Assembly: GCA_007695095.1 (NCBI GenBank) | Contig: REEL01000148.1 | Coordinates: 218-64,217, forward strand | From: Chitinophagaceae bacterium | GTDB lineage: Bacteria; Bacteroidota; Bacteroidia; Chitinophagales; REEL01 | Direction: 5' to 3' | Length of the DNA: 64,000 bases | Shown here: positions 1-57,307 of the stretch, one piece after another | Numbering within the stretch: the stretch's first letter is position 1 | How the letters are laid out: each line of letters starts with the position of its first letter | Notes under the pieces: generated by a model | Told to the model about the DNA's origin: nothing | Seen by the model: the letters and a program-made list of their open reading frames with translations, nothing else | Databases searched by the model: none | Position numbers and translations under genes: made by a program

Positions 1-3000
1 CCTGTAAAAACATTGAATTTGAGATTCATCATTATACATTATGATGAAAATGAACCAAGAAATTTTGAATCAAATAATCAAAATCATGTTGATTTTCTAC
101 AATTAATTGTTTCAGATTTAAATGATGCCTTTACAGATATTCAACCATCATCAAATTCAGATTGTACATCTGAAACAATTGTTCCAACTGGCACTTTAAA
201 CAATCAACCGGACACTAGGATTCAATTTTATCTACATGATATAGTTGAAGTCGTAGATCCAAATTTATGGGATGCAGACATTTTTTTGGATCATAGTTCT
301 ATGTCAGATGCTTTGGATTCTATCCACCCTCCAAGCGATAACAAAGCTATAAATATCTATATGACTGGAAGCGAATGCAATTATGATAAAAGAGTACTTT
401 TGAACACGAACCCAACTTGTACTAATCCTGACTGGGTTTCAAAAGGTTTAATGAAAGGAAGATTTCCTAATCAAAATTTAAATTTCTCTGAATTTTTAAA
501 AATTTATGCCTTTGATGCTTTTAGTAAGTATAAAGCTCACAATAATGGGTATTATTGTCACCTATATTCACAATGTTGTCCCGCTTGTCCTATTTCATGG
601 CAATCTGGTGTTGATGCTTATGCACATGAAATAGGCCATAATCTTGGATTGGGCCATGCAAATCAATGTCCTGAAAGTATAATGGATCAAGAATGTTGTT
701 CTGGAGCAAGGTTTTTATATGACAATCAATTATCTCAAATGCACAGATCATTAGGAATAACAAATGCAAGAAATGTTGTAAGAGATTGTCCTTATTCTCC
801 AGAACCTATCTTAATCACTAAGGATTCTGTTCTTAATTTGAACATAAGATTATACCAGGACCTAATAATTAAGTCAGGCAATACATTAACAATTACTTGT
901 AAAGTTTTAATGCCTGATGATGCAAAAATAATTGTAGAACCAAATGCAAAATTAATTATTGACGGAGGCAAAATAACTAATGCTTGTAATGGTCTTTGGA
1001 AAGGAATTGAAGTTTGGGGTGATAATGAACAACATCAATACACGATTAACTATATTAACCAACAGGGAAAAGTACATTTAAAAAATGGAGCAATCATTGA
1101 CGGTGCTGAAATTGGTATAGCTACATATAATCCTAATGAATATAATAGAAATACAGGAGGAATTATTATAGCAGAAGATGCGACTTTTAAAAACTGCAAA
1201 AATGCTGTTTTCTTATTTCCCTATCAAAACTTCTACCCTAATAACCCTAGTCAACTGCGTCCAAATTTAAGCAGATTTGACAATGTAGAATTTATAGCTA
1301 ATGGAGAAAATTATAATTCAGGAGTAAATTATGGTACTGGAATGGTAGTGCTTTGGGGTGTTAATGGTGTTCGATTCAGAGGTTGTAAGTTTCTAAACTT
1401 AGATGAAAATACTGAAAGTTCTAACTGGGAAAGGTCTGGAATTACATCATTAGATGCAAACTATACTGTTACCAGTTTATGTGTAACAGTACCGGGTGTG
1501 TTTAATCCACCTTTTTCATGTCCTCCTCAAAATATTGTCAGGAGTAAGTTTGAAAACCTTAAACAAGGTATTTGGGCAGGAAAGTATTCTGACCCATTTA
1601 AAACATATACTGTCGAAAATAGTGATTTTATAGGGAATCGTACAGGTATTTTAAATGCAGGGGTTGATTATGCTACAATAGTTCTGAATAATTTTGAAAT
1701 AACTACTTTTCCAAATGCAGATACGTTAAGTGCAATAGCGGTGGAAACAGGAACCGGATTTGCCATTGAACAAAATGACATTTTAGGCTCAATTGATATC
1801 AACAATAATGAGCAGGTTGGAATTTGGGTGAGAAACAGTGGAATTGAACCAAACAGGTTGTATAACAATAAGATTACTTCAACTTCTTATGCAACACTTG
1901 CAAACGGAAATAACAGATCAATACCAGATGTTGCTTATGCTCCAGTTGATGGCCTATTGTTTGAATGTAATGAATATGTGGATAACTTCAATGATATAGT
2001 AGCAGTTGGCACATCAGATGGAGATGGTGTAAAGTTACATCAAGGTACCAATATTTTGGGTGAAGAAGTACCCGCCGGCAATAAATTTTCTGATTATGAC
2101 AATCATCCATACAGAGACATAAATAATCCATCTGCTTGGCCTATGATTTATTTTTATTATGAAAATGAATCGATTGAAATTCCTGAATTTTACAATACAA
2201 ACAATGTAAATACCGAAGGATTAGGATATCCCAATGATTGTGATGCGAATTATAATCCTTCAAACAATTATTTATCTTCTGTTTTAACACATATAATGCT
2301 TGATCAGCAAAAAGATAATTTTAACACTTCTTTTGTACAGTACTCAAGTGTTTTGTTTTCTTATAATCAGTTAATTGACGGAGGAAATACAAATTCTTTA
2401 CTTGAGGACATTCAAAATGCCTGGTCGAGTGAAGCGTGGGAGTTATATAATGGCTTGATTGCAGAATCTCCTTACTTATCAACTACGGCAATAAAGCAAG
2501 CTGCTCAAACGGGTATTTTGCCTAATGAAATGTTACTTGACTTATGTGTAGCAAACCCAGAGGCAACAATGGGCTATCAATTTATTGATTTTTTAAAGGA
2601 CTCTATTCCAAATTCATTACCTGTTTATATGTTAGATATCATAGTAGCAAATTGGAGTACTCAAACACCGCGTGGCATAATTGAACTTCAGCTCAGTAAA
2701 CTCAATGAGGAAAAACACCAAAGTGCAAGTGCTGTATTAAGGCATTATATGAATGATACGACTAATTATGAAATGGACAGTATCAGAACATGGACTGCTA
2801 AGAAAGAAAATTTACCCTCATTATATGCTGAAGTAATGGATAATTTTTTGTATGTTGAGGATCCGGATTACGGTGGGCTTATGGACGATATACTTATTGA
2901 CTATGACAACTTGCCGGACTATATTCATGCATTGCATTATGATTATCACGGATTACTAGATTTTGTATTTCAAAACATTACAACATCAGGTTTATCAATT

Positions 3001-3450
3001 TTGGAGGCTGATACAACTGATTTGGAATCACTCAAATATTACGCAAATAAACAAGGTTGGCCGGCAGTTATAGCCAGTGGAATTTTACATTTTACAGGAT
3101 ATGAATTGTTTGATCCACTACCGGAACTTCCCGGACCTCCTCAGCAATATCGCAGAGCTCAAAATTCTGACAAATTTTCGTTAAATGATGAACAATTCGT
3201 ATCTTTATTAGTGTATCCCAATCCGGCACAAGTAATGGTCATTTTTGAATATGAATTGAAGAAAAATTATCCTGATGCAAAACTTATGATTTATGATGTG
3301 TCCGGTAAATTACAGAAAGATTTTATGATTAATCGGTATAAAGGTCAAAAAATTTGGGACACAAGACAAGTGGCTAATGGCATCTATATGTATTATATCC
3401 AATCCGGTGATAAAATCTTAAAAAATGGCAAAGTTACAATAAATAATTAA
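1..3450 (+). CDS. Large secreted metzincin-like zinc metalloprotease with T9SS C-terminal sorting domain; 5' end runs off the window
   Basis: The frame is open from nt 1 (codons 1-12 have no stop before the listed TTG at 13) and no signal peptide is visible, so the gene is truncated. It has the zinc motif HEIGHNLGLGH (HExxHxxGxxH) and a long Asn/Gly-rich middle that looks like a beta-helix. The C-terminus LLVYPNPAQ...MIYDVSGK...NGIYMYYIQ fits the Bacteroidota T9SS CTD pattern. Confidence 0.8.
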   Translation, partial: PVKTLNLRFIIIHYDENEPRNFESNNQNHVDFLQLIVSDLNDAFTDIQPSSNSDCTSETIVPTGTLNNQPDTRIQFYLHDIVEVVDPNLWDADIFLDHSSMSDALDSIHPPSDNKAINIYMTGSECNYDKRVLLNTNPTCTNPDWVSKGLMKGRFPNQNLNFSEFLKIYAFDAFSKYKAHNNGYYCHLYSQCCPACPISWQSGVDAYAHEIGHNLGLGHANQCPESIMDQECCSGARFLYDNQLSQMHRSLGITNARNVVRDCPYSPEPILITKDSVLNLNIRLYQDLIIKSGNTLTITCKVLMPDDAKIIVEPNAKLIIDGGKITNACNGLWKGIEVWGDNEQHQYTINYINQQGKVHLKNGAIIDGAEIGIATYNPNEYNRNTGGIIIAEDATFKNCKNAVFLFPYQNFYPNNPSQLRPNLSRFDNVEFIANGENYNSGVNYGTGMVVLWGVNGVRFRGCKFLNLDENTESSNWERSGITSLDANYTVTSLCVTVPGVFNPPFSCPPQNIVRSKFENLKQGIWAGKYSDPFKTYTVENSDFIGNRTGILNAGVDYATIVLNNFEITTFPNADTLSAIAVETGTGFAIEQNDILGSIDINNNEQVGIWVRNSGIEPNRLYNNKITSTSYATLANGNNRSIPDVAYAPVDGLLFECNEYVDNFNDIVAVGTSDGDGVKLHQGTNILGEEVPAGNKFSDYDNHPYRDINNPSAWPMIYFYYENESIEIPEFYNTNNVNTEGLGYPNDCDANYNPSNNYLSSVLTHIMLDQQKDNFNTSFVQYSSVLFSYNQLIDGGNTNSLLEDIQNAWSSEAWELYNGLIAESPYLSTTAIKQAAQTGILPNEMLLDLCVANPEATMGYQFIDFLKDSIPNSLPVYMLDIIVANWSTQTPRGIIELQLSKLNEEKHQSASAVLRHYMNDTTNYEMDSIRTWTAKKENLPSLYAEVMDNFLYVEDPDYGGLMDDILIDYDNLPDYIHALHYDYHGLLDFVFQNITTSGLSILEADTTDLESLKYYANKQGWPAVIASGILHFTGYELFDPLPELPGPPQQYRRAQNSDKFSLNDEQFVSLLVYPNPAQVMVIFEYELKKNYPDAKLMIYDVSGKLQKDFMINRYKGQKIWDTRQVANGIYMYYIQSGDKILKNGKVTINN

Positions 3451-3458
3451 TTATAAAT

Positions 3459-3496
3459 AAATCTGCTAAGCATAGACCTATATGCTTAGCGGATTT
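3459..3496 (+). repeat. 16-bp inverted repeat (hairpin) between the first two T9SS cargo genes
   Basis: AAATCTGCTAAGCATA (3459-3474), loop GACCTA, then TATGCTTAGCGGATTT (3481-3496). 15 of 16 positions are Watson-Crick and one is a U-G wobble. No U-tract follows on the plus strand, so this is an intercistronic hairpin rather than a canonical terminator. Confidence 0.6.
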
Positions 3497-3508
3497 AAAC
3501 ACACCCTT

Positions 3509-5278
3509 ATGAAATACCTTTACTTATTTATATTATACATTTTATTCTTTAGTAATATTTCTCTAAAAGCACAGCAAACCCCCACTTTTATACGTGGTGA
3601 TGTGTTTTCTATACCTTCTAACATGACATATGATGTAGTGGAAACGAATAGCGGTTATCTTGCTGCATATAGTCAATCTATTAATTATATTGATTTACCG
3701 GCCTTTTCTATGTTTGCAAAATTTGATTTTAATGGTAACTTAATTGACACTCTACATCTTCCTAAAATTGATTCTATACCAATCTATTATTCCCATTTAA
3801 TAGAGTTATTAAACGACTCTACTGCCATAATCCAGGGTAGATGTGATACTACGGTTAGAACTTTCGGCAGATTTGCTTTTTTTGCTGAAGTAGATTTAAA
3901 TACTTTAAAATTTAACTGGTTTACTTATGTTGACCGTTCTATAGTCGAAGATTCTACTTATCAACAAGAAATCAGAAATGTAGTGGAGGATTTTGTTATT
4001 GATAGTATAAGTGGCAATATATATTTTGTTGGTCATACAATTTATGATGACTATTACAGTTTTCCGCATTGGCAAAGTTTTCAAAAATTTAATGTGCTAT
4101 TAGGCAAAATGTCAAGTCAGGGGGAACTCTTATGGGTTAAAGAATATAAAAAACATGAACATCATTTATATGGTGGTCAAATAAATCTGGACTATATGAA
4201 CAATCAAATATTAATTGCAGGCTCTCAGCGTGATTCGTATAAACATCCCTTATTACCAACTGCATATCTACCTCTGAATTACCCATTAGTAATCATAACG
4301 GATATGGATGGAAATGAATTGGATCGTCTTGAAAACAATTTTGTAAGTGATTATGAACTTGGAGTTTCCAGAACTTCAAGCTATCAACCTACACCGGATG
4401 GAGGATATGTAATGGTTGGAAGGGCATTTGAAATTGTGGAAAACATGTACCCTCTGGGGAATCCCAACTTTTGGTATGATCAATTTGTTACGCAACATAT
4501 TTCAAAATATGATGCCAATCATCAATATTTATGGCATTGGGATGGTCATTTAGCTGTCTCAGCAGGGCATAATGATTATAGATATAGTCAATTAGTTGTA
4601 AATGATGACAATACGTATGTAGCAGGTGGACATTGCATAATAGATGCCGTTTGGTCTTGGAATGGGGAACAAGGAGTCATTTGTATGCATAAACTATCTG
4701 AAGATGGCGATTCTTTATGGAGAAGATATTATCATTATTTAGTGGAACGACCGGGAAATCGGCCACATTTTATTTATTTTTTAAAAAAAGCATCTGATGG
4801 TGGATATTTGATAACTGGAAAGATATATGACATGCTGTATATTCAACAAGAAACCCCAATTCAACATGCAGTATTAATTAAAACCGATTCTATGGGTTGC
4901 GTAGTGCCCGGCTGTGACACTTGCCATACGGCTACCTGTACAGAGGAATTCTTTTATGACTACCATCCCGATGACCTTATAGATGAAGAAGACACTACCA
5001 GTGTTTTTACACCGGAAAAACTTCAATTAAAATTGCAAGTGTATCCTAATCCCGCTTCAAATCATCTTTTTTTTATGCCTTCCGGCATGCAACAACCCGA
5101 TGTAGCTATTATAAGACTATATGACATGTCCGGTCGTCAGGTCCGTGAATTTGAAACTCAGCTCTTTAACGGGCATCAGTATATTATGGATATAAGTAAT
5201 CTGCAAGCAGGAAATTACCTATTGCAAGTTGAGGGTGAAAATTACCAATATCAAACAGAAAAAATATTAATACAGTAA
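3509..5278 (+). CDS. Secreted protein of unknown function with T9SS C-terminal sorting domain
   Basis: The ATG at 3509 gives the signal peptide MKYLYLFILYILFFSNISLKAQQ. The listed start at 3482 lies inside the upstream hairpin. The C-terminus LQVYPNPASNHLFF...RLYDMSGRQV...AGNYLLQV is a T9SS CTD pattern. No catalytic motif was recognised. Confidence 0.8.
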   Translation: MKYLYLFILYILFFSNISLKAQQTPTFIRGDVFSIPSNMTYDVVETNSGYLAAYSQSINYIDLPAFSMFAKFDFNGNLIDTLHLPKIDSIPIYYSHLIELLNDSTAIIQGRCDTTVRTFGRFAFFAEVDLNTLKFNWFTYVDRSIVEDSTYQQEIRNVVEDFVIDSISGNIYFVGHTIYDDYYSFPHWQSFQKFNVLLGKMSSQGELLWVKEYKKHEHHLYGGQINLDYMNNQILIAGSQRDSYKHPLLPTAYLPLNYPLVIITDMDGNELDRLENNFVSDYELGVSRTSSYQPTPDGGYVMVGRAFEIVENMYPLGNPNFWYDQFVTQHISKYDANHQYLWHWDGHLAVSAGHNDYRYSQLVVNDDNTYVAGGHCIIDAVWSWNGEQGVICMHKLSEDGDSLWRRYYHYLVERPGNRPHFIYFLKKASDGGYLITGKIYDMLYIQQETPIQHAVLIKTDSMGCVVPGCDTCHTATCTEEFFYDYHPDDLIDEEDTTSVFTPEKLQLKLQVYPNPASNHLFFMPSGMQQPDVAIIRLYDMSGRQVREFETQLFNGHQYIMDISNLQAGNYLLQVEGENYQYQTEKILIQ

Positions 5279-5290
5279 AAATTAAAACTA

Positions 5291-6736
5291 ATGAATTTTT
5301 TTAGAAAAATCAGCATACTATTTTGTTTCTTTATTCTTTTATCAAATTTCATTAAAGATTCAATTGCATCACCTGATTGTCGTGAAAGTGTTTTCTTTGG
5401 TTATTCAGCTGAAGGTGCTTTTCAACCTACTGTTTTTACTTTAATTCCAAGTTATCCGCAAAATTTTGGAGAAATTTTAATTGAATTACAACCGGTAATT
5501 CATTCAGGTGATTTGCTGGGAGTAAGGGCAACTTTTGTTGAAGGACTTACCGGTCCAATTAGGGTGGAAATGTCGTATGCATCAAATAATGACAGTATTT
5601 ATTTTGAAAAATATGATCTTAACATTCAAAGTACTCCTTTAGAAGATACTTCAATTTTTGTTCCCAACATTATTCAAATGATTCCGGATTGGCATAATTC
5701 TAATTATGTATTTAGTAAAAATGGAAATGAAATTGAGTTTTCAAAACTAAATTTAAATGATAAATCACTATTAAACATTGCTACTTTACAAATAGATAGT
5801 TTGGTAGATATATTTGAAAGCAGCTATTCATATTTTGGTTTACACCTAATAGGAATGAAAGATGATACTATAAGAAAGTATTACAATATTAAAGTAGAAA
5901 CAGGTTCAATTTTACTTGATGTTGATATCAGTGCCATTGAAGGGGAGATATTTTTCGCTGCCGGAGATGAAAACGAAGTGATGTTTATCTCTCAAAAAAC
6001 GGAAGACTCTTTGCAAACATTTTTTACACATTATTATTCTGATACAGATAGCTTTTCATACATGCAGATTACAGAATTAGATACCATATATAATGTGACA
6101 TCCTGGAGAAATGAACCGCCTTCAATGTCAATAAACGAAATAAATTCTGAAATTGCTATTTTAACCAACTCTACAGATACAAACTTTCAATCTAAGTTAC
6201 ACATCTATGATATAGATTCAGGTCAATTCATGACCTCATATCCCTTTGACTTTGATGCCAAAAAAGTGTATGTGCCCGGCTTGAAAAATGCATGGTTATC
6301 GTCTAATTTATATCTGTCTTCTACTCCCCCTGTATTCGTGGAATATGAAGAGGCTAATGAGCGATTTATTGCTCGATTATCTTCGGACTTAACAACGATT
6401 AATCAAAATGAAAAGAAAGAAATTCCATTAAGTGGTATTTCTACATATTCTTCAACATTTTATTGTATTGTCCCGGTAGAAGAAATTAGTGTAAATGAAT
6501 TTAATATTCAAATTTTTCCAAACCCTGCTTCCGGCTACACAACCATCAACCTTCCAGAAGAGATTACAAATCCTTCTGTTGCTGTTTATGATTTACAAGG
6601 TCGGAAAGTACTCACTCAAGATTTATATCAAAATGAAAATGTCTTGCCTCTGAAAGGCTTGACAAAGGGAGTTTATATTATTACAGTTAAGAGCGAAAGT
6701 CAGGTATTAAAGATGGATAAATTGGTCGTTTTTTAG
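5291..6736 (+). CDS. Secreted protein of unknown function with T9SS C-terminal sorting domain
   Basis: Signal peptide MNFFRKISILFCFFILLSNFIKDSIA. The C-terminus IQIFPNPASGYTTINL...VAVYDLQGRKV...KGVYIITVKS is a T9SS CTD pattern. Confidence 0.8.
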   Translation: MNFFRKISILFCFFILLSNFIKDSIASPDCRESVFFGYSAEGAFQPTVFTLIPSYPQNFGEILIELQPVIHSGDLLGVRATFVEGLTGPIRVEMSYASNNDSIYFEKYDLNIQSTPLEDTSIFVPNIIQMIPDWHNSNYVFSKNGNEIEFSKLNLNDKSLLNIATLQIDSLVDIFESSYSYFGLHLIGMKDDTIRKYYNIKVETGSILLDVDISAIEGEIFFAAGDENEVMFISQKTEDSLQTFFTHYYSDTDSFSYMQITELDTIYNVTSWRNEPPSMSINEINSEIAILTNSTDTNFQSKLHIYDIDSGQFMTSYPFDFDAKKVYVPGLKNAWLSSNLYLSSTPPVFVEYEEANERFIARLSSDLTTINQNEKKEIPLSGISTYSSTFYCIVPVEEISVNEFNIQIFPNPASGYTTINLPEEITNPSVAVYDLQGRKVLTQDLYQNENVLPLKGLTKGVYIITVKSESQVLKMDKLVVF

Positions 6737-19436: not shown

Positions 19437-20057
19437 TTGAAAACTTTCCTTTTAATCATATTGTCTTTTTACATTTTTTCAGCTAATGCGGCAACGCCCT
19501 TTGATGAAATTCCGGATACAAGCAGGCAGGATGCTATAATTGAAACAGAAAATATTCAGGAAAAAACAATCAGTAAGGAAGCACCGTCTCACAGCCCTGC
19601 AAGAGCAGCTTTCTTAAGTGCTGTACTTCCCGGTGCCGGTCAGGTTTATAACAGAAAATATTGGAAATTGCCAATTATTTATGCCGGTTTTGCAGGATTA
19701 GGATACTCTATCTATTTTAATGCCGGTGAGTATAGAAACTTCAGAAATGCAATTCTTACCCGATTGGATGACAATCCGGACACTACAGACCCCTATGAAG
19801 ATATTTATACAACGGAAAACCTGATTACACTTAAAAATTATTATCGAAGAAACTTAGACATTTCAGTTGTAGCGAGTATTTTACTGTATGCACTTAACAT
19901 CATTGATGCAACTGTAGATGCACACCTTTTTGAATTTGATGTAAGTGATGATCTAAGCCTGCAACTATTTAATTATGATGCGGTTAGTCAACCTTATTTT
20001 ACCGGGTTTCAAAATGGTTCGGTCAACTTCACTCTTCGTTGGAAAGTCGGTAATTAG
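19437..20057 (+). CDS. DUF5683-like membrane protein (typical gene after parB in Bacteroidota)
   Basis: TTG start, signal peptide MKTFLLIILSFYIFSANA, and motif AAFLSAVLPGAGQVYNRKYWKLPIIYAGFAGLGY. Confidence 0.7.
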   Translation: MKTFLLIILSFYIFSANAATPFDEIPDTSRQDAIIETENIQEKTISKEAPSHSPARAAFLSAVLPGAGQVYNRKYWKLPIIYAGFAGLGYSIYFNAGEYRNFRNAILTRLDDNPDTTDPYEDIYTTENLITLKNYYRRNLDISVVASILLYALNIIDATVDAHLFEFDVSDDLSLQLFNYDAVSQPYFTGFQNGSVNFTLRWKVGN

Positions 20058-20257
20058 TTTTTCTCCTGACTCTTCTTTTTTGAATCTGAAAACACAGATG
20101 CCCCCAAACCTCCAATCAAAGCACCATAAACGGTTGAATTGTACCATACTGAGGTAATTGAACAATTACCTGTCAAACAACCAATTTGATTCCAATACAA
20201 AAATCCGGCTACAGCCCCTATTGAAATACCTATTGCTATAATTATATATTTATTCAT
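20054..20257 (-). CDS. Small two-TM membrane protein (possibly DUF6132-like); last gene of the sulfur operon
   Basis: 67 aa, IIIAIGISIGAVAGFLYWNQIGCLTGNCSITS...YGALIGGLGA. It is co-oriented with the rhodanese genes at a 12-nt spacing. Confidence 0.6.
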   Translation of the reverse strand: MNKYIIIAIGISIGAVAGFLYWNQIGCLTGNCSITSVWYNSTVYGALIGGLGASVFSDSKKKSQEKN

Positions 20258-20269
20258 TTTTATTAAATT

Positions 20270-20665
20270 TTAATTTTTAATCGGCAAATTATTGCGGACC
20301 CAATCCTGAAAACCTCTGTTGAGATGATAAACTTTACCTTGACGATGTTCCATATAGGTTGAAAAAATTCTACTGCTTCTGTTTCCACTTGCACAGTAAA
20401 CAATGATATCTTTAGGCTCATCAGCTGTTTTCAACATCTTATCCCAAAAATCATTTCCATAAAAATTTATGTTTATGGCATTCTCTATATGACCTCTATT
20501 AAATTCTTGTGGAGTTCTTAAATCAATAACCAAATATTCACTTCCATTTAGAAATACTTCCTGCAAATCTAGTGCAGATACATTTTGCACATTTTCATTA
20601 TTTACTGAACCAGCACACGAAGTGAAGGTTATTGTTAAAAAAAATAATACTATAAAATTTTTCAT
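20270..20665 (-). CDS. Exported single-domain rhodanese (sulfurtransferase), probable lipoprotein
   Basis: Signal/lipobox LTITFTSCAG. The rhodanese fold motif is VIDLRTPQEFNRGHIENAINI, and the active-site loop is VYCASGNRSSR. Confidence 0.8.
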   Translation of the reverse strand: MKNFIVLFFLTITFTSCAGSVNNENVQNVSALDLQEVFLNGSEYLVIDLRTPQEFNRGHIENAININFYGNDFWDKMLKTADEPKDIIVYCASGNRSSRIFSTYMEHRQGKVYHLNRGFQDWVRNNLPIKN

Positions 20666-20675
20666 ATTTTAAAAT

Positions 20676-20996
20676 TTACTTTGAAAATTGTTGAAAATTA
20701 AACCACATTCCACCATTATAAACCTTTTCAAGACCTTTGTCTTTTAAGATTTCATTAGCGGTAGCGCTTTTAAAACCTGAACCGCAAACTACAATTACAG
20801 GAACATTAAGTTTTTTTAGTTTTTCAGCCTTTGTCTCCAACTCATTCATGGGAATATTCAATGCTCTTGGTGCATGCCCAAGTTCAAAATCTTTTTCTTT
20901 TCGGACATCAATCAACAAAGCCCCTTCCTGAAACAAGACTTCCCAGTCGGGTTGTCTGATTAATCGGGGGAATATTTTTTTTATTAGTGCAAACAT
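20676..20996 (-). CDS. Cytoplasmic single-domain rhodanese
   Basis: LIDVRKEKDFELGHAPRALNIP and the active-site loop VVCGSGFKSATA. Confidence 0.8.
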   Translation of the reverse strand: MFALIKKIFPRLIRQPDWEVLFQEGALLIDVRKEKDFELGHAPRALNIPMNELETKAEKLKKLNVPVIVVCGSGFKSATANEILKDKGLEKVYNGGMWFNFQQFSK

Positions 20997-21011
20997 ATAC
21001 TTAGCATAACG

Positions 21012-22736
21012 CTATTTCCCCTTTAAAAATTCCTCTTTCAAACTGATAATTGTACTTTTTGATTTCATCCTGTTTTCTGAAATATCCAATATAGCCTCAT
21101 AGACTTCCCTGTAAAAATTTTCTTCGCCCATAAAATCAATAAATCCTGCCTTTTCCATTCTGTCACTAACCGGCCCTATTAAACTTGTTATAACTAATAT
21201 AATTCCCTGTTCTTTAAGTTTTGCAGTAACTTTTTCCAACATTTCAAAAGCTGTTGAATCCACATGATTAATCCCGGCTGCGTCTAAAACTACATATTCA
21301 ACATCAGCATTATTTTTGATTTTTTCGAATAAATTCTCAGAAAAATATTCATGATTGGCAAAATATAAAGGACCATCAAATCTAACTACTACAAATCCCG
21401 GCTCTTTTATACAATTTTCGTAACGTTTAACATTTCTGAAAATTGGAGTATCGGGAAGTCTGCCTAATTCTACAAAATGTGGTTGAGTAGTTCTAAAAAT
21501 TATAATAATCAATGAAATCAATGCGCCAATCAAAATCCCATACAAAATACCCATACTGAGGGTTACTAAAAATGTGGCTATCCAAATGAAAATATCACCC
21601 TTTGACAGCTTCATCAATTTTAATGGCGTTTTAAAATCAACCAAACCTATTACAGCAAAAATTACAATCGTTGCAAGTATAGCTTTTGGTAAATAAAAAA
21701 ACATGTCTGTTAAAAAAAGTAATGTTACTAACACCATTGCCAAAGCAATAATACTTGAAAGCTGAGTTTTTGCTCCGGCCTCCTTATTAACTGTTGATCT
21801 TGAAAAACCACCGGCAACCGGAAAAGAACTAAAAAAGCTGCCTCCTAAATTTGATAAGCCCATAGAAATAAACTCCTGATTACTTTTAGGTTGCCCATCG
21901 CTATCATTTTCTGACAATTTTTTTGCAATAGCTATAGATTCTATAAAGCCAATTAATGCTATTGAAAAAGCTATAGGCAGTAATTCTAAAAGCTCTGACC
22001 ACAAAGGCAATGTAAACGGTGGCATTCCGGAAGGTACTTCACCCAAAACTTTTACTCCGTCCTGATGTAAATTTCCCATGTAAACAATAGAGATTCCCAA
22101 TACAACCACTATCAAAAACGAAGGAAAGCTTTTTTTATACTTTTTTATCAAAAATATTAATGCAAAAGCAATAACAGCAGTTATCATACTCGGAAAATGC
22201 AGTGTTTGTATATTCTGTATAATATTTAATACAATTTCATGAGCAAACTTAGAGGACTCCATATCGAGTCCGAACACATGCTTCAGCTGACTAAACGCTA
22301 TAATAATTGCAGCTGCCGATGTAAATGCTGCTAAAACCGGATGTGATAAAAAGTTAACTATAAAACCCAAGCGAAAAACACCCATTGATAATTGCAGTAT
22401 CCCAACCAAAAAGCTGAGTGTTACTGCATACTTTACAGCTTCAGCTGAACCATGTTCTGCATAAGGCAAAATACTTGCGCCCACTAAAATAGCTACTATA
22501 GCGACCGGTCCGACAGAAAGATATCTTGAAGTTCCAAAAACTGCATATATAAACAAAGGTACCAATGCGGCATACAAACCATAAATAGGCGGTAAGCCCG
22601 CAACCATTGCATAAGCCATACCCTGAGGTATGAGCATTACGCCTATGGTTAAACCTGCTGAAATATCATAGTTTAGCCAAGATTTCTTATAGTTTTTTAT
22701 CCACCCGGCAGCAGGTATAATTTTTGTTAGATTCAA
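21012..22736 (-). CDS. SulP-family anion transporter with C-terminal STAS domain
   Basis: 574 aa. The N-terminus WLNYDISAGLTIGVMLIPQGMAYAMVAGLPPIYGLYA is typical of SulP. The C-terminal soluble part (VVVRFDGPLYFANHEYF...VVLDAAGINHVDSTA) is STAS-like. Confidence 0.88.
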   Translation of the reverse strand: MNLTKIIPAAGWIKNYKKSWLNYDISAGLTIGVMLIPQGMAYAMVAGLPPIYGLYAALVPLFIYAVFGTSRYLSVGPVAIVAILVGASILPYAEHGSAEAVKYAVTLSFLVGILQLSMGVFRLGFIVNFLSHPVLAAFTSAAAIIIAFSQLKHVFGLDMESSKFAHEIVLNIIQNIQTLHFPSMITAVIAFALIFLIKKYKKSFPSFLIVVVLGISIVYMGNLHQDGVKVLGEVPSGMPPFTLPLWSELLELLPIAFSIALIGFIESIAIAKKLSENDSDGQPKSNQEFISMGLSNLGGSFFSSFPVAGGFSRSTVNKEAGAKTQLSSIIALAMVLVTLLFLTDMFFYLPKAILATIVIFAVIGLVDFKTPLKLMKLSKGDIFIWIATFLVTLSMGILYGILIGALISLIIIIFRTTQPHFVELGRLPDTPIFRNVKRYENCIKEPGFVVVRFDGPLYFANHEYFSENLFEKIKNNADVEYVVLDAAGINHVDSTAFEMLEKVTAKLKEQGIILVITSLIGPVSDRMEKAGFIDFMGEENFYREVYEAILDISENRMKSKSTIISLKEEFLKGK

Positions 22737-22765: not shown

Positions 22766-23179
22766 TTAATGTGGTAAATTAGGTCTAAAGTAACTATAAA
22801 CCCATGTTCCTATTAATGCAAACAATATAATTATTAATACAGGATAAACACCTGCTCCAACCAAAGCAAATAAAGGTCCTGGACATGCTCCTGTCATAGC
22901 CCACCCCATTCCAAATATACTTCCTCCAATTATATAACCATGGTTATATACTTTTTTGGGGAAATCAATTTTTGTACCATCAATTGCTTTTCCTCCGTTC
23001 AGTTTTAGCAACCCTATTAAAACCATCCCGGTAAAAATGGCACTACCAATTATTCCATACATATGAAAGGATTGAAACCGGAACATCTCCTGAATACGAT
23101 ACCAGGAAATCACTTCACTTTTTGTTAATATTATCCCAAAAAGGATACCTAAAAACAAATATATAAACCATCTAATCAT
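22766..23179 (-). CDS. YeeE/YedE-related sulfur-transport membrane protein, short second subunit
   Basis: 137 aa with four hydrophobic segments and the motif GWAMTGACPGP. It lies immediately downstream of the YeeE/YedE gene. Confidence 0.7.
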   Translation of the reverse strand: MIRWFIYLFLGILFGIILTKSEVISWYRIQEMFRFQSFHMYGIIGSAIFTGMVLIGLLKLNGGKAIDGTKIDFPKKVYNHGYIIGGSIFGMGWAMTGACPGPLFALVGAGVYPVLIIILFALIGTWVYSYFRPNLPH

Positions 23180-23188
23180 AACTAATAT

Positions 23189-23743
23189 TTAAAAGATTAA
23201 GGGAAATATAAGGTGTGTCATTACTAAGCCACCTGCAAAAAATCCAACAACAGCCAATAATGATGCCCATTGCAAATGAGATAAGCCGGTGATGGCATGA
23301 CCGGAGGTGCAACCTCCGGCATACCGGGTTCCAAAACCAACAAAAAACCCACCTATAGCCATAAATAAAAATCCTTGCCATGTGATAAAACTCTCAAAAG
23401 AAATCAGTGAAGAAGGTAATAAACCGGACTCATGACTTATTCCTAACTTTTGAATGTCTCTGATTGTGGCATCTGATATAGCTATTAGTTCCGGATGTCC
23501 AATTACATTCCATGCAATCACACCGCCTAAAAAAACACCTAATACAAAAATCAAATTCCACTTTTCTGCTTTCCAATCATATTTCAAAAATGAAATATTC
23601 GCCGGCACACAAGCTGCACATACATGTCTAAAGCTCGAGGAAATACCAAGGTTTTTATTACTTACCCATAAGAGTAAAAATAATGTAATACCTATTAAAG
23701 GCCCGGCCACATACCATGGCCAGGGCTCGTATAAAAAATTCAT
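23189..23743 (-). CDS. YeeE/YedE family sulfur-compound transporter subunit
   Basis: 184 aa, hydrophobic, with the motif RYAGGCTSGHAITG (conserved Cys loop of YeeE/YedE). Confidence 0.78.
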   Translation of the reverse strand: MNFLYEPWPWYVAGPLIGITLFLLLWVSNKNLGISSSFRHVCAACVPANISFLKYDWKAEKWNLIFVLGVFLGGVIAWNVIGHPELIAISDATIRDIQKLGISHESGLLPSSLISFESFITWQGFLFMAIGGFFVGFGTRYAGGCTSGHAITGLSHLQWASLLAVVGFFAGGLVMTHLIFPLIF

Positions 23744-23761: not shown

Positions 23762-25087
23762 TTAATAATTATTGATTCGCTCACCCAGATCATACACTTT
23801 ATCTTTAAGTGCACCTTCTAAAATACTCGAACCGGCAGCACTTCTGTAACCTGCGGCACAATGAACCACAACCGGCTTTCCTGTAGGAATCTCAGCATAC
23901 CGCTCCCTTAATTCATTAAGTGGAATAAGAATTCGGTTGGTGAACTTCGCTTCTTTTGCCTCTCCCTCGTTTCGCACATCTACTATAGTGAATGAATCCG
24001 GATTTTTATCGAAATCTTCGATTGGTAAATCCTCTGATTGAGTGCTCATATTTGATTGTGGTAGAATTGCGGCTTTAATATTCAGTTCATAACCGATTTT
24101 TGCAGCTTTCTCAATCAATTCTTCCCTGCTATTCTCATCCTCTGCAAGTAAATAATACTTTTCGTCAGGGCTGACAATAGAACCTAACCATGTTTCAAAC
24201 TTCCCGCCATTCATCAGGTTTATACTACCCTTCAGATGCCCCTTCTTAAATTCTCTTTCATCTCTGGTATCTATAATTACATGCCCATCTTCAATATTCA
24301 CATCGCCTTCCGGACGATTTACCGCCTTAATACTTTCTTCATAGGCTGGTGCTCCTGCTTTATTTAAAGCAACATTATATCCAAAGTATTTTGGAATAAA
24401 GGGTTGATCTTCTAAAAGCATTTTTACAAAAGTGTCTTCATCCATAGGTTGTAGAGCTGTATTTTGCTCTAATTCTTTTCCTATAGTACTGGTAAGATCC
24501 GTACTTAGATTTTTACCACATAAAGAACCCGCTCCGTGTGCCGGATAGACCATAACTTGTTCTTCAAGCTTCATCAGCTTTTCACGAGTTGAGGTGTACA
24601 TATCTTTTGCCAACTCTTCTCTTTTAGCATGTATAGAACCCGCTTTTTCTCTTAAATCCGGTCTTCCAACGTCTCCAATAAATAATGTATCTCCGGTAAA
24701 AACGCCGTGCTGCTTACCGTCCTTGTCAAGTAATAAAAGTGTTATACTGTCCGGAGAGTGACCCGGAGTATGTATAATTCTAAAGTTTACTTCTCCTAAA
24801 GTTACGGTGTCTCCCTCATTAAGTGACTTATGAGGATAATCCGCACCTAAAAGCTCGCTCACATAAATATCCGCCCCTGTCGTTTCTGATATCTCTAAAT
24901 GAGAACTCACAAAATCTGCATGTGGATGCGTTTCAAAAACCTTTGTGATTTTTGCATTATGCTTGTCTACAAATTCATAATACGGCTTAGGATCTCTGGC
25001 CGGATCTACCAATGCCGCTTCTTTTCCGCTAATAATTACATAACTGGCATGTGCCAAACCTTTGTCATAAAATTGTTCTACTATCAT
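23762..25087 (-). CDS. Persulfide dioxygenase (MBL fold) fused to two rhodanese domains (CstB/Blh-like)
   Basis: MBL motif FETHPHADF...IHTPGHSPDS...GDTLFIGDVGRPDL. One rhodanese-like domain without Cys follows (VIIDTRDEREFKKGHLKGSINL), then a second with the catalytic loop VVVHCAAGYRSAAG. The 441-aa length is close to that of the S. aureus CstB architecture. Confidence 0.85.
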   Translation of the reverse strand: MIVEQFYDKGLAHASYVIISGKEAALVDPARDPKPYYEFVDKHNAKITKVFETHPHADFVSSHLEISETTGADIYVSELLGADYPHKSLNEGDTVTLGEVNFRIIHTPGHSPDSITLLLLDKDGKQHGVFTGDTLFIGDVGRPDLREKAGSIHAKREELAKDMYTSTREKLMKLEEQVMVYPAHGAGSLCGKNLSTDLTSTIGKELEQNTALQPMDEDTFVKMLLEDQPFIPKYFGYNVALNKAGAPAYEESIKAVNRPEGDVNIEDGHVIIDTRDEREFKKGHLKGSINLMNGGKFETWLGSIVSPDEKYYLLAEDENSREELIEKAAKIGYELNIKAAILPQSNMSTQSEDLPIEDFDKNPDSFTIVDVRNEGEAKEAKFTNRILIPLNELRERYAEIPTGKPVVVHCAAGYRSAAGSSILEGALKDKVYDLGERINNY

Positions 25088-25109: not shown

Positions 25110-25143
25110 TTCATATCTAAGTATCTAAATGCAAAGATATGTA
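25110..25143 (-). promoter_or_regulatory. Promoter (-7 box) overlapped by a dyad operator candidate for the sulfur operon
   Basis: In gene orientation it reads TACATATCTTTGCATTTAGATACTTAGATATGAA. It contains TATCTTTG (TAnnTTTG; plus-strand 25132-25139) and the inverted repeat CATATCT-N16-AGATATG. The 20-mer CATATCTTTGCATTTAGATA is identical to 48398-48417. Confidence 0.6.
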
Positions 25144-48034: not shown

Positions 48035-48395
48035 ACTTTTTTTTAATTAAGTTTCTTTAACGTAAATAAATCTATTCCTATTTTGTTGCTGCAAATATAG
48101 CCAATATATATTCTGTTACATAATATTGATCAAAAACAATACCGGAAGATTTAACTCCATTTTAATTCATGCTTTTGACATAAAATTATCTAAAAATCAA
48201 TGCATGTTAAATAATTAAAAACTATACGAAAAGTCATACTTTTTTCTTTCAATACCTCTCCTTTTCAAACTACTCTTTTTAAATTTTATGGATTTAATGA
48301 GCTAATAAAAATAGCTCAAACAAAATTTGTAATCAGATTTACTTTTATTTTTTTATTGATTTTTTTAGTCCAAACGCTATTCATAGGAACCTTTA

Positions 48396-48431
48396 TTCAT
48401 ATCTTTGCATTTAGATATTTAAATACATGAA
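48396..48431 (+). promoter_or_regulatory. Promoter (-7 box) and dyad operator candidate of the ArsR-trxA unit
   Basis: TTCATATCTTTGCATTTAGATATTTAAATACATGAA. TATCTTTG at 48400-48407 matches TAnnTTTG. The 20-mer at 48398-48417 is identical to the element upstream of the persulfide dioxygenase operon. The outer arms are TTCATAT and ACATGAA. Confidence 0.6.
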
Positions 48432-48433
48432 CT

Positions 48434-48739
48434 ATGTCAGAGATTTTAACAAAACGAATAGAAGAAAAAAAACTATTTCAATGCGCCAGTATGTTGAAGG
48501 CCATTGCACATCCATCCAGAATGGCTATTGTAGACTTATTGGGTAAGAAAAAAGAACTTATAGTAACAGACATTTACCGTTTACTAGAAATGGAGCAAGC
48601 TGCCGTTTCACATCATCTTGGTATATTGAAAAGCAATGGGTTGCTTGAGTTTAGAAAGGATGGGAAAAACACTTACTATTCTTTAGCAAAAATTGAGGTT
48701 TTACAAATTATTCAATGCATAGAAAAGTGTGCCATCTAA
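48434..48739 (+). CDS. ArsR/SmtB-family transcriptional regulator (candidate BigR/SqrR-like persulfide sensor)
   Basis: LKAIAHPSRMAIVDLL...TDIYRLLEMEQAAVSHHLGILKSNGLL is the ArsR winged-HTH signature. Cysteines are at positions 17, 95 and 99. Confidence 0.85.
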   Translation: MSEILTKRIEEKKLFQCASMLKAIAHPSRMAIVDLLGKKKELIVTDIYRLLEMEQAAVSHHLGILKSNGLLEFRKDGKNTYYSLAKIEVLQIIQCIEKCAI

Positions 48740-48766: not shown

Positions 48767-49063
48767 ATGAGTAAATTTACAGAGTTAATAAACGGAGAAA
48801 TCCCCGTATTAGCAGATTTTCATGCTGAATGGTGTGGACCCTGTAAAATGATGATGCCAACCATCAATGAAATAGCAACGCATTTTAAGGGTAAACTAAA
48901 AGTGATAAAAATTGATGTTGATAAAAATGAAAGTGCCACTAAAAAGTATCAGATAATGGGAGTTCCTACATTAATTTTATTTAAAAATGGACGGATTGCA
49001 TGGAAACAGTCAGGGGTATTAAGTTTTTCAGATTTAAAAAAGATTATAGACAGTCATTTATAA
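48767..49063 (+). CDS. trxA: Thioredoxin
   Basis: VLADFHAEWCGPCKMM (WCGPC active site), 98 aa. Confidence 0.93.
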   Translation: MSKFTELINGEIPVLADFHAEWCGPCKMMMPTINEIATHFKGKLKVIKIDVDKNESATKKYQIMGVPTLILFKNGRIAWKQSGVLSFSDLKKIIDSHL

Positions 49064-49084: not shown

Positions 49085-49118
49085 AAAAAAAGTCCGGTAA
49101 ATTTTACCGGACTTTTTT
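49085..49118. terminator. Bidirectional rho-independent terminator between trxA and dnaK
   Basis: AGTCCGGTAAA (49091-49101) pairs with TTTACCGGACT (49103-49113). An A-run and a T-run flank it. Confidence 0.8.
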
Positions 49119-57172: not shown

Positions 57173-57223
57173 AAAATCAACTGATTCCTAAATAATTTTC
57201 TTTAGATTTGCATTCCCATTTCA

Positions 57224-57307
57224 GCCCGGGTGGCGGAATTGGTAGACGCGTTGGTCTCAAACACCAATGGAGGTAACTTCGTGCCGGTTCGACTCCGGCC
57301 CCGGGTA
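57224..57307 (+). tRNA. tRNA-Leu (anticodon CAA)
   Basis: I folded the cloverleaf by hand. The acceptor is GCCCGGG paired with CCCGGGT (one G-U). The D arm is GCGGAATTGGTAGACGC. The anticodon stem TTGGT/ACCAA carries the loop CTCAAAC. It has a long variable arm and the T arm GCCGG-TTCGACT-CCGGC. CCA is not encoded. Confidence 0.93.

Follow-up and report, generated by a model that had tools for sequence, protein, structure and literature searches.

Repression of a persulfide dioxygenase (PDO)–rhodanese operon by an ArsR protein is already known from BigR and SqrR and, functionally, from CstR. BigR with its bigR-blh system (Xylella/Agrobacterium), PigS and YgaV, which belong to cluster 4 of the ArsR SSN, are autoregulated ArsR repressors, and this group controls a PDO of the metallo-β-lactamase fold together with one or more rhodanese domains and TauE/YeeE-type membrane proteins. 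SqrR of Rhodobacter capsulatus is a persulfide-responsive repressor of sulfide-oxidation genes with the ArsR/SmtB winged-helix fold, which senses through C41 in α2 and C107 in α5. Its operator, ATTC-x8-GAAT, is bound by one dimer (bioRxiv 10.64898/2026.05.15.721447), and its polysulfide link is reduced by TrxC (PMC10044876). All characterised ArsR-type persulfide sensors use a cysteine pair, with one residue in α2 and one in α5, that forms an intraprotomer polysulfide bridge (PMC11672702). CstR, which governs the cst operon of Staphylococcus aureus, is also a thiol-based repressor and acts over a CstB-like PDO-rhodanese, sulfurtransferases and a sulfur transporter, but it is a CsoR-family persulfide sensor with an unrelated four-helix bundle fold and a different type of operator. 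The paper library that we searched yielded no regulator of sulfide/persulfide detoxification in Bacteroidota.

Here we describe a candidate for such a regulator in a 64-kb window (the whole stretch of 64,000 nucleotides analysed, from contig REEL01000148.1 of a Chitinophagaceae bacterium), in which a putative operator embedded in a Bacteroidota promoter links an ArsR–thioredoxin unit to a PDO-rhodanese operon. By analogy, the closest characterised system in working principle appears to be SqrR. The window ArsR and SqrR share a recognition helix that starts with QAAVS, the predicted operator has the same 4-N8-4 geometry as that of SqrR, and a thioredoxin is encoded together with the window ArsR, an arrangement for which the re-reduction of SqrR by thioredoxin provides a precedent. 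The two systems differ in that D34 takes the place of the α2 cysteine in the window ArsR, which carries a CxxxC pair in α5, and in that the dyad arms read ATCT/AGAT instead of ATTC/GAAT. Where SqrR has the base-contacting residues R60 and Q66, the window ArsR has E54 and H60, and these substitutions would fit the differing operator arms. The window promoters are moreover of the Bacteroidota −7 type, and the thioredoxin gene belongs to the regulator's own operon. As for the BigR group, an ArsR-TauE-PDO gene order also occurs in three of the homolog clusters described below (L013, L131 and L033), whereas the window ArsR has no α2 cysteine and is encoded 23 kb from the PDO operon, to which only the predicted operator links it.

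Organization of the two transcription units

The ArsR/SmtB-family regulator (101 aa; 48434..48739, + strand) is followed after 27 nt by a gene for a thioredoxin with a WCGPC motif (48767..49063, +). A palindromic, terminator-like hairpin at 49086..49118, consisting of a 15-bp palindrome flanked by runs of A and T, lies between the thioredoxin gene and the convergent dnaK gene, marks the end of the unit and is probably a bidirectional terminator. Since this is the only terminator-like hairpin, the ArsR and thioredoxin genes appear to form one unit, and they are probably co-transcribed.

The PDO operon lies on the opposite strand and comprises seven genes with gaps of 9–29 nt throughout. Its first gene encodes the PDO-rhodanese fusion, with metallo-β-lactamase and rhodanese domains (23762..25087, −), and is followed on the same strand by genes for two YeeE/YedE-type sulfur-transport half-proteins (23189–23743 and 22766–23179), a SulP-family permease with a STAS domain (21012..22736), two single-domain rhodaneses (20676–20996 and 20270–20665) and, as the last gene, a DUF6132 protein (20054–20257). 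Pfam and NCBIfam uphold the gene calls of both units. The Pfam domains of the first protein, Lactamase_B at residues 11–184 and two rhodanese stretches, give this predicted enzyme the architecture of a CstB/Blh-like PDO-rhodanese fusion; with 46.8 bits against an NCBIfam cut-off of 625, it is not a Blh equivalog.

The two promoters share an identical 20-nt element

The element CATATCTTTGCATTTAGATA is present at exactly two sites in the 64-kb window, with no mismatch at either. One copy lies at 48398..48417 on the + strand, leaving 16 nt to the ArsR ATG at 48434, and the other at 25122..25141 on the − strand, leaving 34 nt to the PDO-rhodanese ATG at 25087, so that the promoters of the two units are 23 kb apart. 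Coordinates and start-codon distances both agree with the original prediction, which had also noted, by eye, no third copy. Our pattern search of the whole window agrees, as it returned no further match with up to three mismatches; the next-best matches have at least five mismatches, and two matches were obtained in none of 100 dinucleotide shuffles. Neither site matches an RNA family in Rfam, the sole match of the window being a tRNA elsewhere. Two independent Logan assemblies of other runs carry an identical ArsR promoter, which is thus not an assembly artefact.

Downstream of the element, the copies agree at a further six of eight positions (TTTAAATA versus CTTAGATA), which brings the total to 26 of 28. 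The sequences further upstream had been described as unrelated, and we likewise found no significant similarity between these flanks. A MAFFT alignment was suggestive of promoter homology beyond the core, yet 29% of shuffles, as well as other window promoters, attained the local alignment score of the flanks, and we rejected this candidate.

The element combines a predicted −7 box with a putative operator

As originally described, both copies contain the box TATCTTTG and an internal TATCT/AGATA dyad. The box is an exact match to TAnnTTTG, the σA −7 box of Bacteroidota, which extends from −12 to −5, counted from the transcription start (PMC9723704). It is found at 48400..48407 (+) in the ArsR–thioredoxin promoter and, as a sequence match, at 25132..25139 (−) in the PDO promoter, and transcription is predicted to start near 48412 and 25127, respectively; a −33 TTTG is not evident at the two sites. 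The −7 reading gains support from TAnnTTTG sequences, mostly followed by CA or CG, that precede many window genes by 20–65 nt. For the same reason, about half of the identical bases (about 10 of the 20) can be ascribed to generic Bacteroidota promoter sequence. Two other −7-like boxes were observed in the window. The first, TATGTTTG at 20990–20997 (−), is placed 1 nt before the rhodanese gene 20676–20996 and could be an internal promoter or reflect a mis-set start codon; the second, TAGATTTG at 57203, lies ahead of a tRNA gene (57224–57307, +).

The predicted operator is the core dyad ATCT-N8-AGAT, located at 48401..48416 in the ArsR–thioredoxin promoter, where the full symmetry is ATATCT-N8-AGATAT (48399–48418), and at 25123..25138 in the PDO promoter, where it reads TATCT-N8-AGATA. 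At both promoters it is predicted to span about −11 to +5. These are the only intergenic occurrences of the dyad in the window: the four other exact matches to ATCT-N8-AGAT (4 in 58.6 kb) are intragenic, as are all nine other matches to TATCT-N8-AGATA with at most one mismatch. As regards its occurrence before unrelated genes, none of the approximately 17 other TAnnTTTG promoters of the window carries the dyad. One of the intragenic matches, at 20084–20099, falls inside the DUF6132 gene that ends the PDO operon, and is probably due to chance given the frequency of such matches.

The original prediction had further extended the symmetry into the flanks, and this part stands only as a description of the sequence. 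In the operon copy, CATATCT-N16-AGATATG is indeed present (arms 25141–25135 and 25118–25112), but with the second right arm AGATATG (25112..25118, −) it is centred 4 nt away from the conserved dyad; for TTCATAT...ACATGAA in the ArsR copy, the offset is 5 nt. Neither outer symmetry is concentric with the conserved dyad or consistently present in homolog promoters, so that comparative support is lacking. In the operon copy, the first AGATA arm and a second one further downstream start 8 nt apart (AGATACTTAGATATG), and the ArsR copy reads AAATACATGAA at the corresponding place (48423–48431). This second arm, which is not conserved in homolog promoters, could provide a second binding register or be due to chance. 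We also considered ATGAA-N6-TTCAT, an operator of the type found in Pontibacter (see below), of which a match with one mismatch at 48385–48400 abuts the 20-nt element; as the window holds four such matches, whereas 8.8 would be expected at random, this does not constitute evidence.

The dyad recurs at ArsR genes linked to PDO-rhodanese genes

Among 5.8 billion proteins, the nearest homolog of the window ArsR is 58% identical and that of the PDO 65%, which makes base-by-base footprinting in close relatives impossible. We gathered 173 loci with ArsR homologs from genome and metagenome collections and by direct look-ups. Most of them are orphan ArsR genes of anaerobic Bacteroidales-like genomes, and in nine the ArsR gene adjoins a PDO-rhodanese gene. 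With a tenth PDO-linked CxxxC ArsR that was reached from the PDO side (L180), the set of CxxxC ArsR/PDO-rhodanese loci consists of L011, L012, L013, L016, L033, L127, L131, L144, L148 and L180.

In four of the nine loci, 8 nt separate the end of ATCT-N8-AGAT from the start codon of ArsR: L013 (TATCTATAAATATAGATA), L127 (CATCTAGAAATTTAGATA), and L131 and L148 (CATCTACAAATATAGATA). Conservation at related loci, which the original prediction had named as a check, is thereby borne out for four of the nine PDO-linked promoters. The ArsR proteins of these four loci are 49–54% identical to the window ArsR and 60–74% identical among themselves, the L131/L148 pair reaching 96%. The four of nine compare with one of the 138 non-redundant promoters of homologs without a PDO link (Fisher p = 3e-5, or 4e-4 with L131 and L148 counted once), and that single instance is located at −102. 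ATCT-N8-AGAT is matched exactly at 48 places in the 2.24 Mb of DNA retrieved, and of these places only those at these ArsR genes directly precede a start codon. In the four relatives, the dyad follows closely after the −7 box, whereas in the window the box contains the left arm of the dyad, and this shift in relative position implies that the dyad is separable from the promoter box. In the window as in the four relatives, it covers the start region.

The exact dyad is absent from the other five of the nine PDO-linked promoters. Those of L033 and L144 contain palindromes made of A and T only, none is obvious in L016, and the two Pontibacter promoters contain CATGAA-N6-TTCATG. L033 has the recognition helix of L148, yet its promoter is without the exact dyad. 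The closest homolog of the window ArsR (P0002, 58% identical) is encoded by an orphan gene, also with no dyad.

The Pontibacter loci (L011 and L012) resemble the window in that their ArsR has a C-terminal CxxxC and in that their PDO-rhodanese is 63–65% identical to that of the window; there, the CxxxC ArsR gene lies directly upstream of the rhodanese and PDO-rhodanese genes in an ArsR-rhodanese-PDO-rhodanese unit. They differ in the ArsR itself, which is 39–41% identical to the window ArsR and has the recognition helix QSLLSHHLTNMRD, and in their palindromes, CATGAA-N6-TTCATG or ATATGAA-N6-TTCATAT in place of ATCT-N8-AGAT. The palindromes at L011:7113–7128 and L012:7080–7095, CATGAA-N6-TTCATG and ATATATGAA-N6-TTCATATAT, are perfect, and to judge from their sequence they are classical ArsR/SmtB-like operators, unlike the window dyad.

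Gene content of related clusters

Related clusters are organized as ArsR-(TauE)-PDO-rhodanese-rhodanese-rhodanese-(DUF6132)-(Trx)-rhodanese, where Trx denotes thioredoxin, and the ArsR genes of L013, L127, L131 and L148 all head PDO-rhodanese clusters. In L033, a Vicingus MAG, genes for ArsR, PDO, rhodaneses, DUF6132 and thioredoxin are united in one cluster. L033, L127 and L131 have thioredoxin genes within their PDO clusters, with products 53–63% identical to the window thioredoxin (56% for L033), and a DUF6132 gene is found in L033 and L131. Genes that are split over two units in the window thus form a single cluster elsewhere.

The window nevertheless does not simply represent such a cluster divided in two, as its PDO is only 33–37% identical to those of the dyad-bearing clusters. 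It belongs to the Pontibacter/Flavihumibacter type, with 62–65% identity, and the PDO genes of its closest homologs L010, L178, L179 and L180 are preceded by other palindromes or by none. The predicted operator hence follows the type of regulator and not the enzyme, which is the behaviour expected of a repressor site. The sequences seen before these PDO genes include ATATTAT-N6-ATAATAT (L179:5925–5950), ATTATGA-N2-TCATAAT (L180:5933–5950) and CAGGATT-N4-AATCCTG (L178:5953–5975); in L180, a PDO-SulP-SulP-PDO cluster is moreover followed by the gene for a diverged ArsR with CVNECATC at its C terminus.

The regulator belongs to an ArsR clade with a CxxxC pair in α5

The window regulator is a typical winged-helix protein of the ArsR/SmtB family. 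It scores above the cut-offs of the Pfam models HTH_5 and HTH_20 (PF01022, 37 bits; PF12840, 38.6 bits) and of NCBIfam NF033788 (82 bits against 55), and its AF2 model (pLDDT 93) has the expected order of elements, α1-α2-α3-αR-β1-β2-α5. A Foldseek search retrieved CadC, NolR, HlyU, CzrA, BigR and SqrR with TM scores of 0.73–0.79; these match about equally well, and the structure search does not separate subfamilies.

In the protein, C17 lies in α1, and C95 and C99 form the CxxxC pair in α5. In a phmmer alignment, D34 aligns with the α2 cysteine of SqrR and so occupies the SqrR/BigR α2 position. This position is never a cysteine among 138 family proteins, of which 136 have the CxxxC pair at the end of α5 and 20 have CxxxCxC. 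C17, by contrast, is confined to the window ArsR and its two nearest homologs. The literature library searched contained no characterised Bacteroidota member of this clade.

Membership in the BigR/SqrR type (ArsR SSN cluster 4) was rejected. The α2/α5 cysteine pair is absent, as is the sqr box ATTC-N8-GAAT, and the score against the BigR equivalog NF040642, 49 bits, misses the cut-off of 155; the PagR, SdpR and CadC-like models score the protein similarly to the BigR model, which indicates that it has no specific affinity to BigR. The linkage to sulfurtransferase, PDO and transporter genes that typifies this group is present at the ten homolog loci, where the genes are adjacent, and in the window by way of the predicted shared operator. 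With no α2 cysteine in the window ArsR, persulfide sensing finds no support in homology of the sensing site. We also rejected an atypical As(III)-sensing ArsR of the AfArsR type, which has three cysteines in or after α5 and is encoded next to ars genes (PMC10054925): the window ArsR and its PDO-linked homologs have only two α5 cysteines. The neighbourhoods inspected, around the window ArsR and at the homolog loci, contain no ars genes.

Orphan CxxxC ArsR genes occur in anaerobic Bacteroidales, Marinilabiliales and Lentimicrobium genomes, with AT-rich palindromes of their own upstream (loci L017–L095 and L096–L175). ATAT-N2/4-ATAT is present in 32 of 49 promoters of the group with a QSTTS helix and AATA-N8-TATT in 23 of 72 promoters of the group with a QAAAS helix. 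In L015 (positions 1–6200; same contig as L022), from a MAG assigned to Gemmatimonadota, the CxxxC ArsR P0011 heads an OEP/HlyD-like/RND efflux operon preceded by ATATATA-N6-TATATAT, so the family is not restricted to sulfur genes.

A model for the proposed regulon

The original prediction read the two sites as one autoregulated regulon, a reading that gains good computational support from the specificity of the dyad, its recurrence at PDO-linked homologs and the linkage of the genes across genomes. We consider it likely that the 20-nt element is a composite promoter–operator bound by the window ArsR, and that it defines a two-unit, autoregulated regulon that is induced by sulfane sulfur and subject to feedback by thioredoxin. 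Beyond the 64 kb searched, the regulon may extend further or the motif may be more frequent. In this model, the element would combine the σA −7 box TATCTTTG with the dyad ATCT-N8-AGAT at −11 to +5. We infer that a dimer of the ArsR protein (48434–48739) binds the dyad at both promoters, where it would occlude the −7 box and the start site and block RNA polymerase. It would thereby repress its own ArsR–thioredoxin operon as well as the seven-gene PDO-rhodanese/YeeE/SulP/rhodanese/DUF6132 operon. A rise in sulfane sulfur, in the form of persulfide or polysulfide derived from sulfide, would lead to oxidation or bridging of C95 and C99, with C17 as a possible participant. The modified repressor would leave the DNA, both units would be induced, and the PDO, rhodaneses and transporters would then clear the sulfur species. 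The induced thioredoxin would re-reduce the repressor, and probably other persulfidated thiols, and so close a negative feedback loop.

The one serious alternative, which we consider improbable, accepts the operator and the regulon and attributes induction to a signal other than sulfane sulfur, such as sulfite, general stress from disulfides or peroxide, or the binding of a thiophilic metal or metalloid to CxxxC pairs at the dimer interface. The α2–α5 cysteine pair of the known persulfide sensors is absent from the window ArsR, atypical As(III)-responsive ArsR proteins use α5 cysteines (PMC10054925), a minority of the family has the extended CxxxCxC motif, the gene of one member is the first of an RND efflux operon, and the NCBIfam label for BigR is 'sulfite-sensing'. 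The PDO, rhodaneses, YeeE/TauE, SulP and thioredoxin nevertheless make up a standard sulfide/persulfide gene set, and no ars or metal-efflux genes adjoin the ArsR gene in the window or in the PDO-linked homologs. As(III) sites, moreover, normally need three thiolates, and C17 is missing in most PDO-linked homologs.

The three remaining explanations fit the data poorly. It is very unlikely that the two copies are left over from a recent promoter duplication or gene conversion, with no regulation in common. Two operators of the same regulon are not usually identical at 20 of 20 positions, and a split accompanied by a copied promoter is plausible where related clusters are single operons. The identity stops abruptly, however, at flanks that behave like shuffled sequence, which points to selection on a core of 20–28 nt; the dyad arms are kept in genomes whose ArsR is only about 50% identical; and the PDOs encoded in the clusters there are not orthologs of the window PDO. 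An origin by duplication would, in any case, be compatible with operator function.

We give scarcely any credence to the proposal that the 20-nt element is a generic strong core of Bacteroidota promoters, with an identity that stems from the promoter consensus and no regulator site. TAnnTTTG followed by CA is common in the window and accounts for the generic half of the positions, and the promoter of an orphan homolog (L006) also reads TATATATTTGCATTTGAT. The approximately 17 other TAnnTTTG promoters of the window, however, are without the AGATA arm and none comes below five mismatches of the element, and the downstream placement of the dyad in L013, L127, L131 and L148 separates it from the box. 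Least credible of all is that a transcription factor encoded elsewhere binds the dyad and that the ArsR gene is merely a target: the case of L033, with the recognition helix of L148 and no exact dyad, speaks for it, but ArsR is the only regulator in the four dyad-bearing clusters, with the dyad directly before its gene, the arrangement classical for autoregulated ArsR genes, and the 4-N8-4 geometry matches an ArsR dimer.

Implications

Compared with the BigR, SqrR and CstR systems, the regulon that we propose would be new in its phylum, in its predicted operator sequence, which is embedded in a Bacteroidota −7 promoter, in its distribution over two promoters with a dedicated thioredoxin, and in a regulator clade whose α5 CxxxC appears to replace the α2/α5 pair. 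That this CxxxC pair, which comprises the only conserved cysteines of a Bacteroidota-wide ArsR clade, is the sulfane-sulfur sensor is a possibility that we advance tentatively, at somewhat less than even chances. If this were the case, the ArsR scaffold would sense persulfides in a structurally new way, in which cysteines one helical turn apart would more readily form a tri- or tetrasulfide bridge than a disulfide, which would be strained, and this would contradict the statement that all ArsR-type sensors of reactive sulfur species (RSS) use an α2/α5 pair.

The locus offers a predicted operator (ATCT-N8-AGAT) and a candidate repressor, together with a proposed regulon of two promoters, and an operator embedded in the −7 box would be useful for regulon prediction and for inducible promoters in Bacteroidota. 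It also points to a large uncharacterised clade of ArsR proteins with an α5 CxxxC. If the pair does act as a sensor, the orphan members of this clade in anaerobic Bacteroidales would be candidate global regulators of the response to sulfide and RSS in gut and sediment Bacteroidota.
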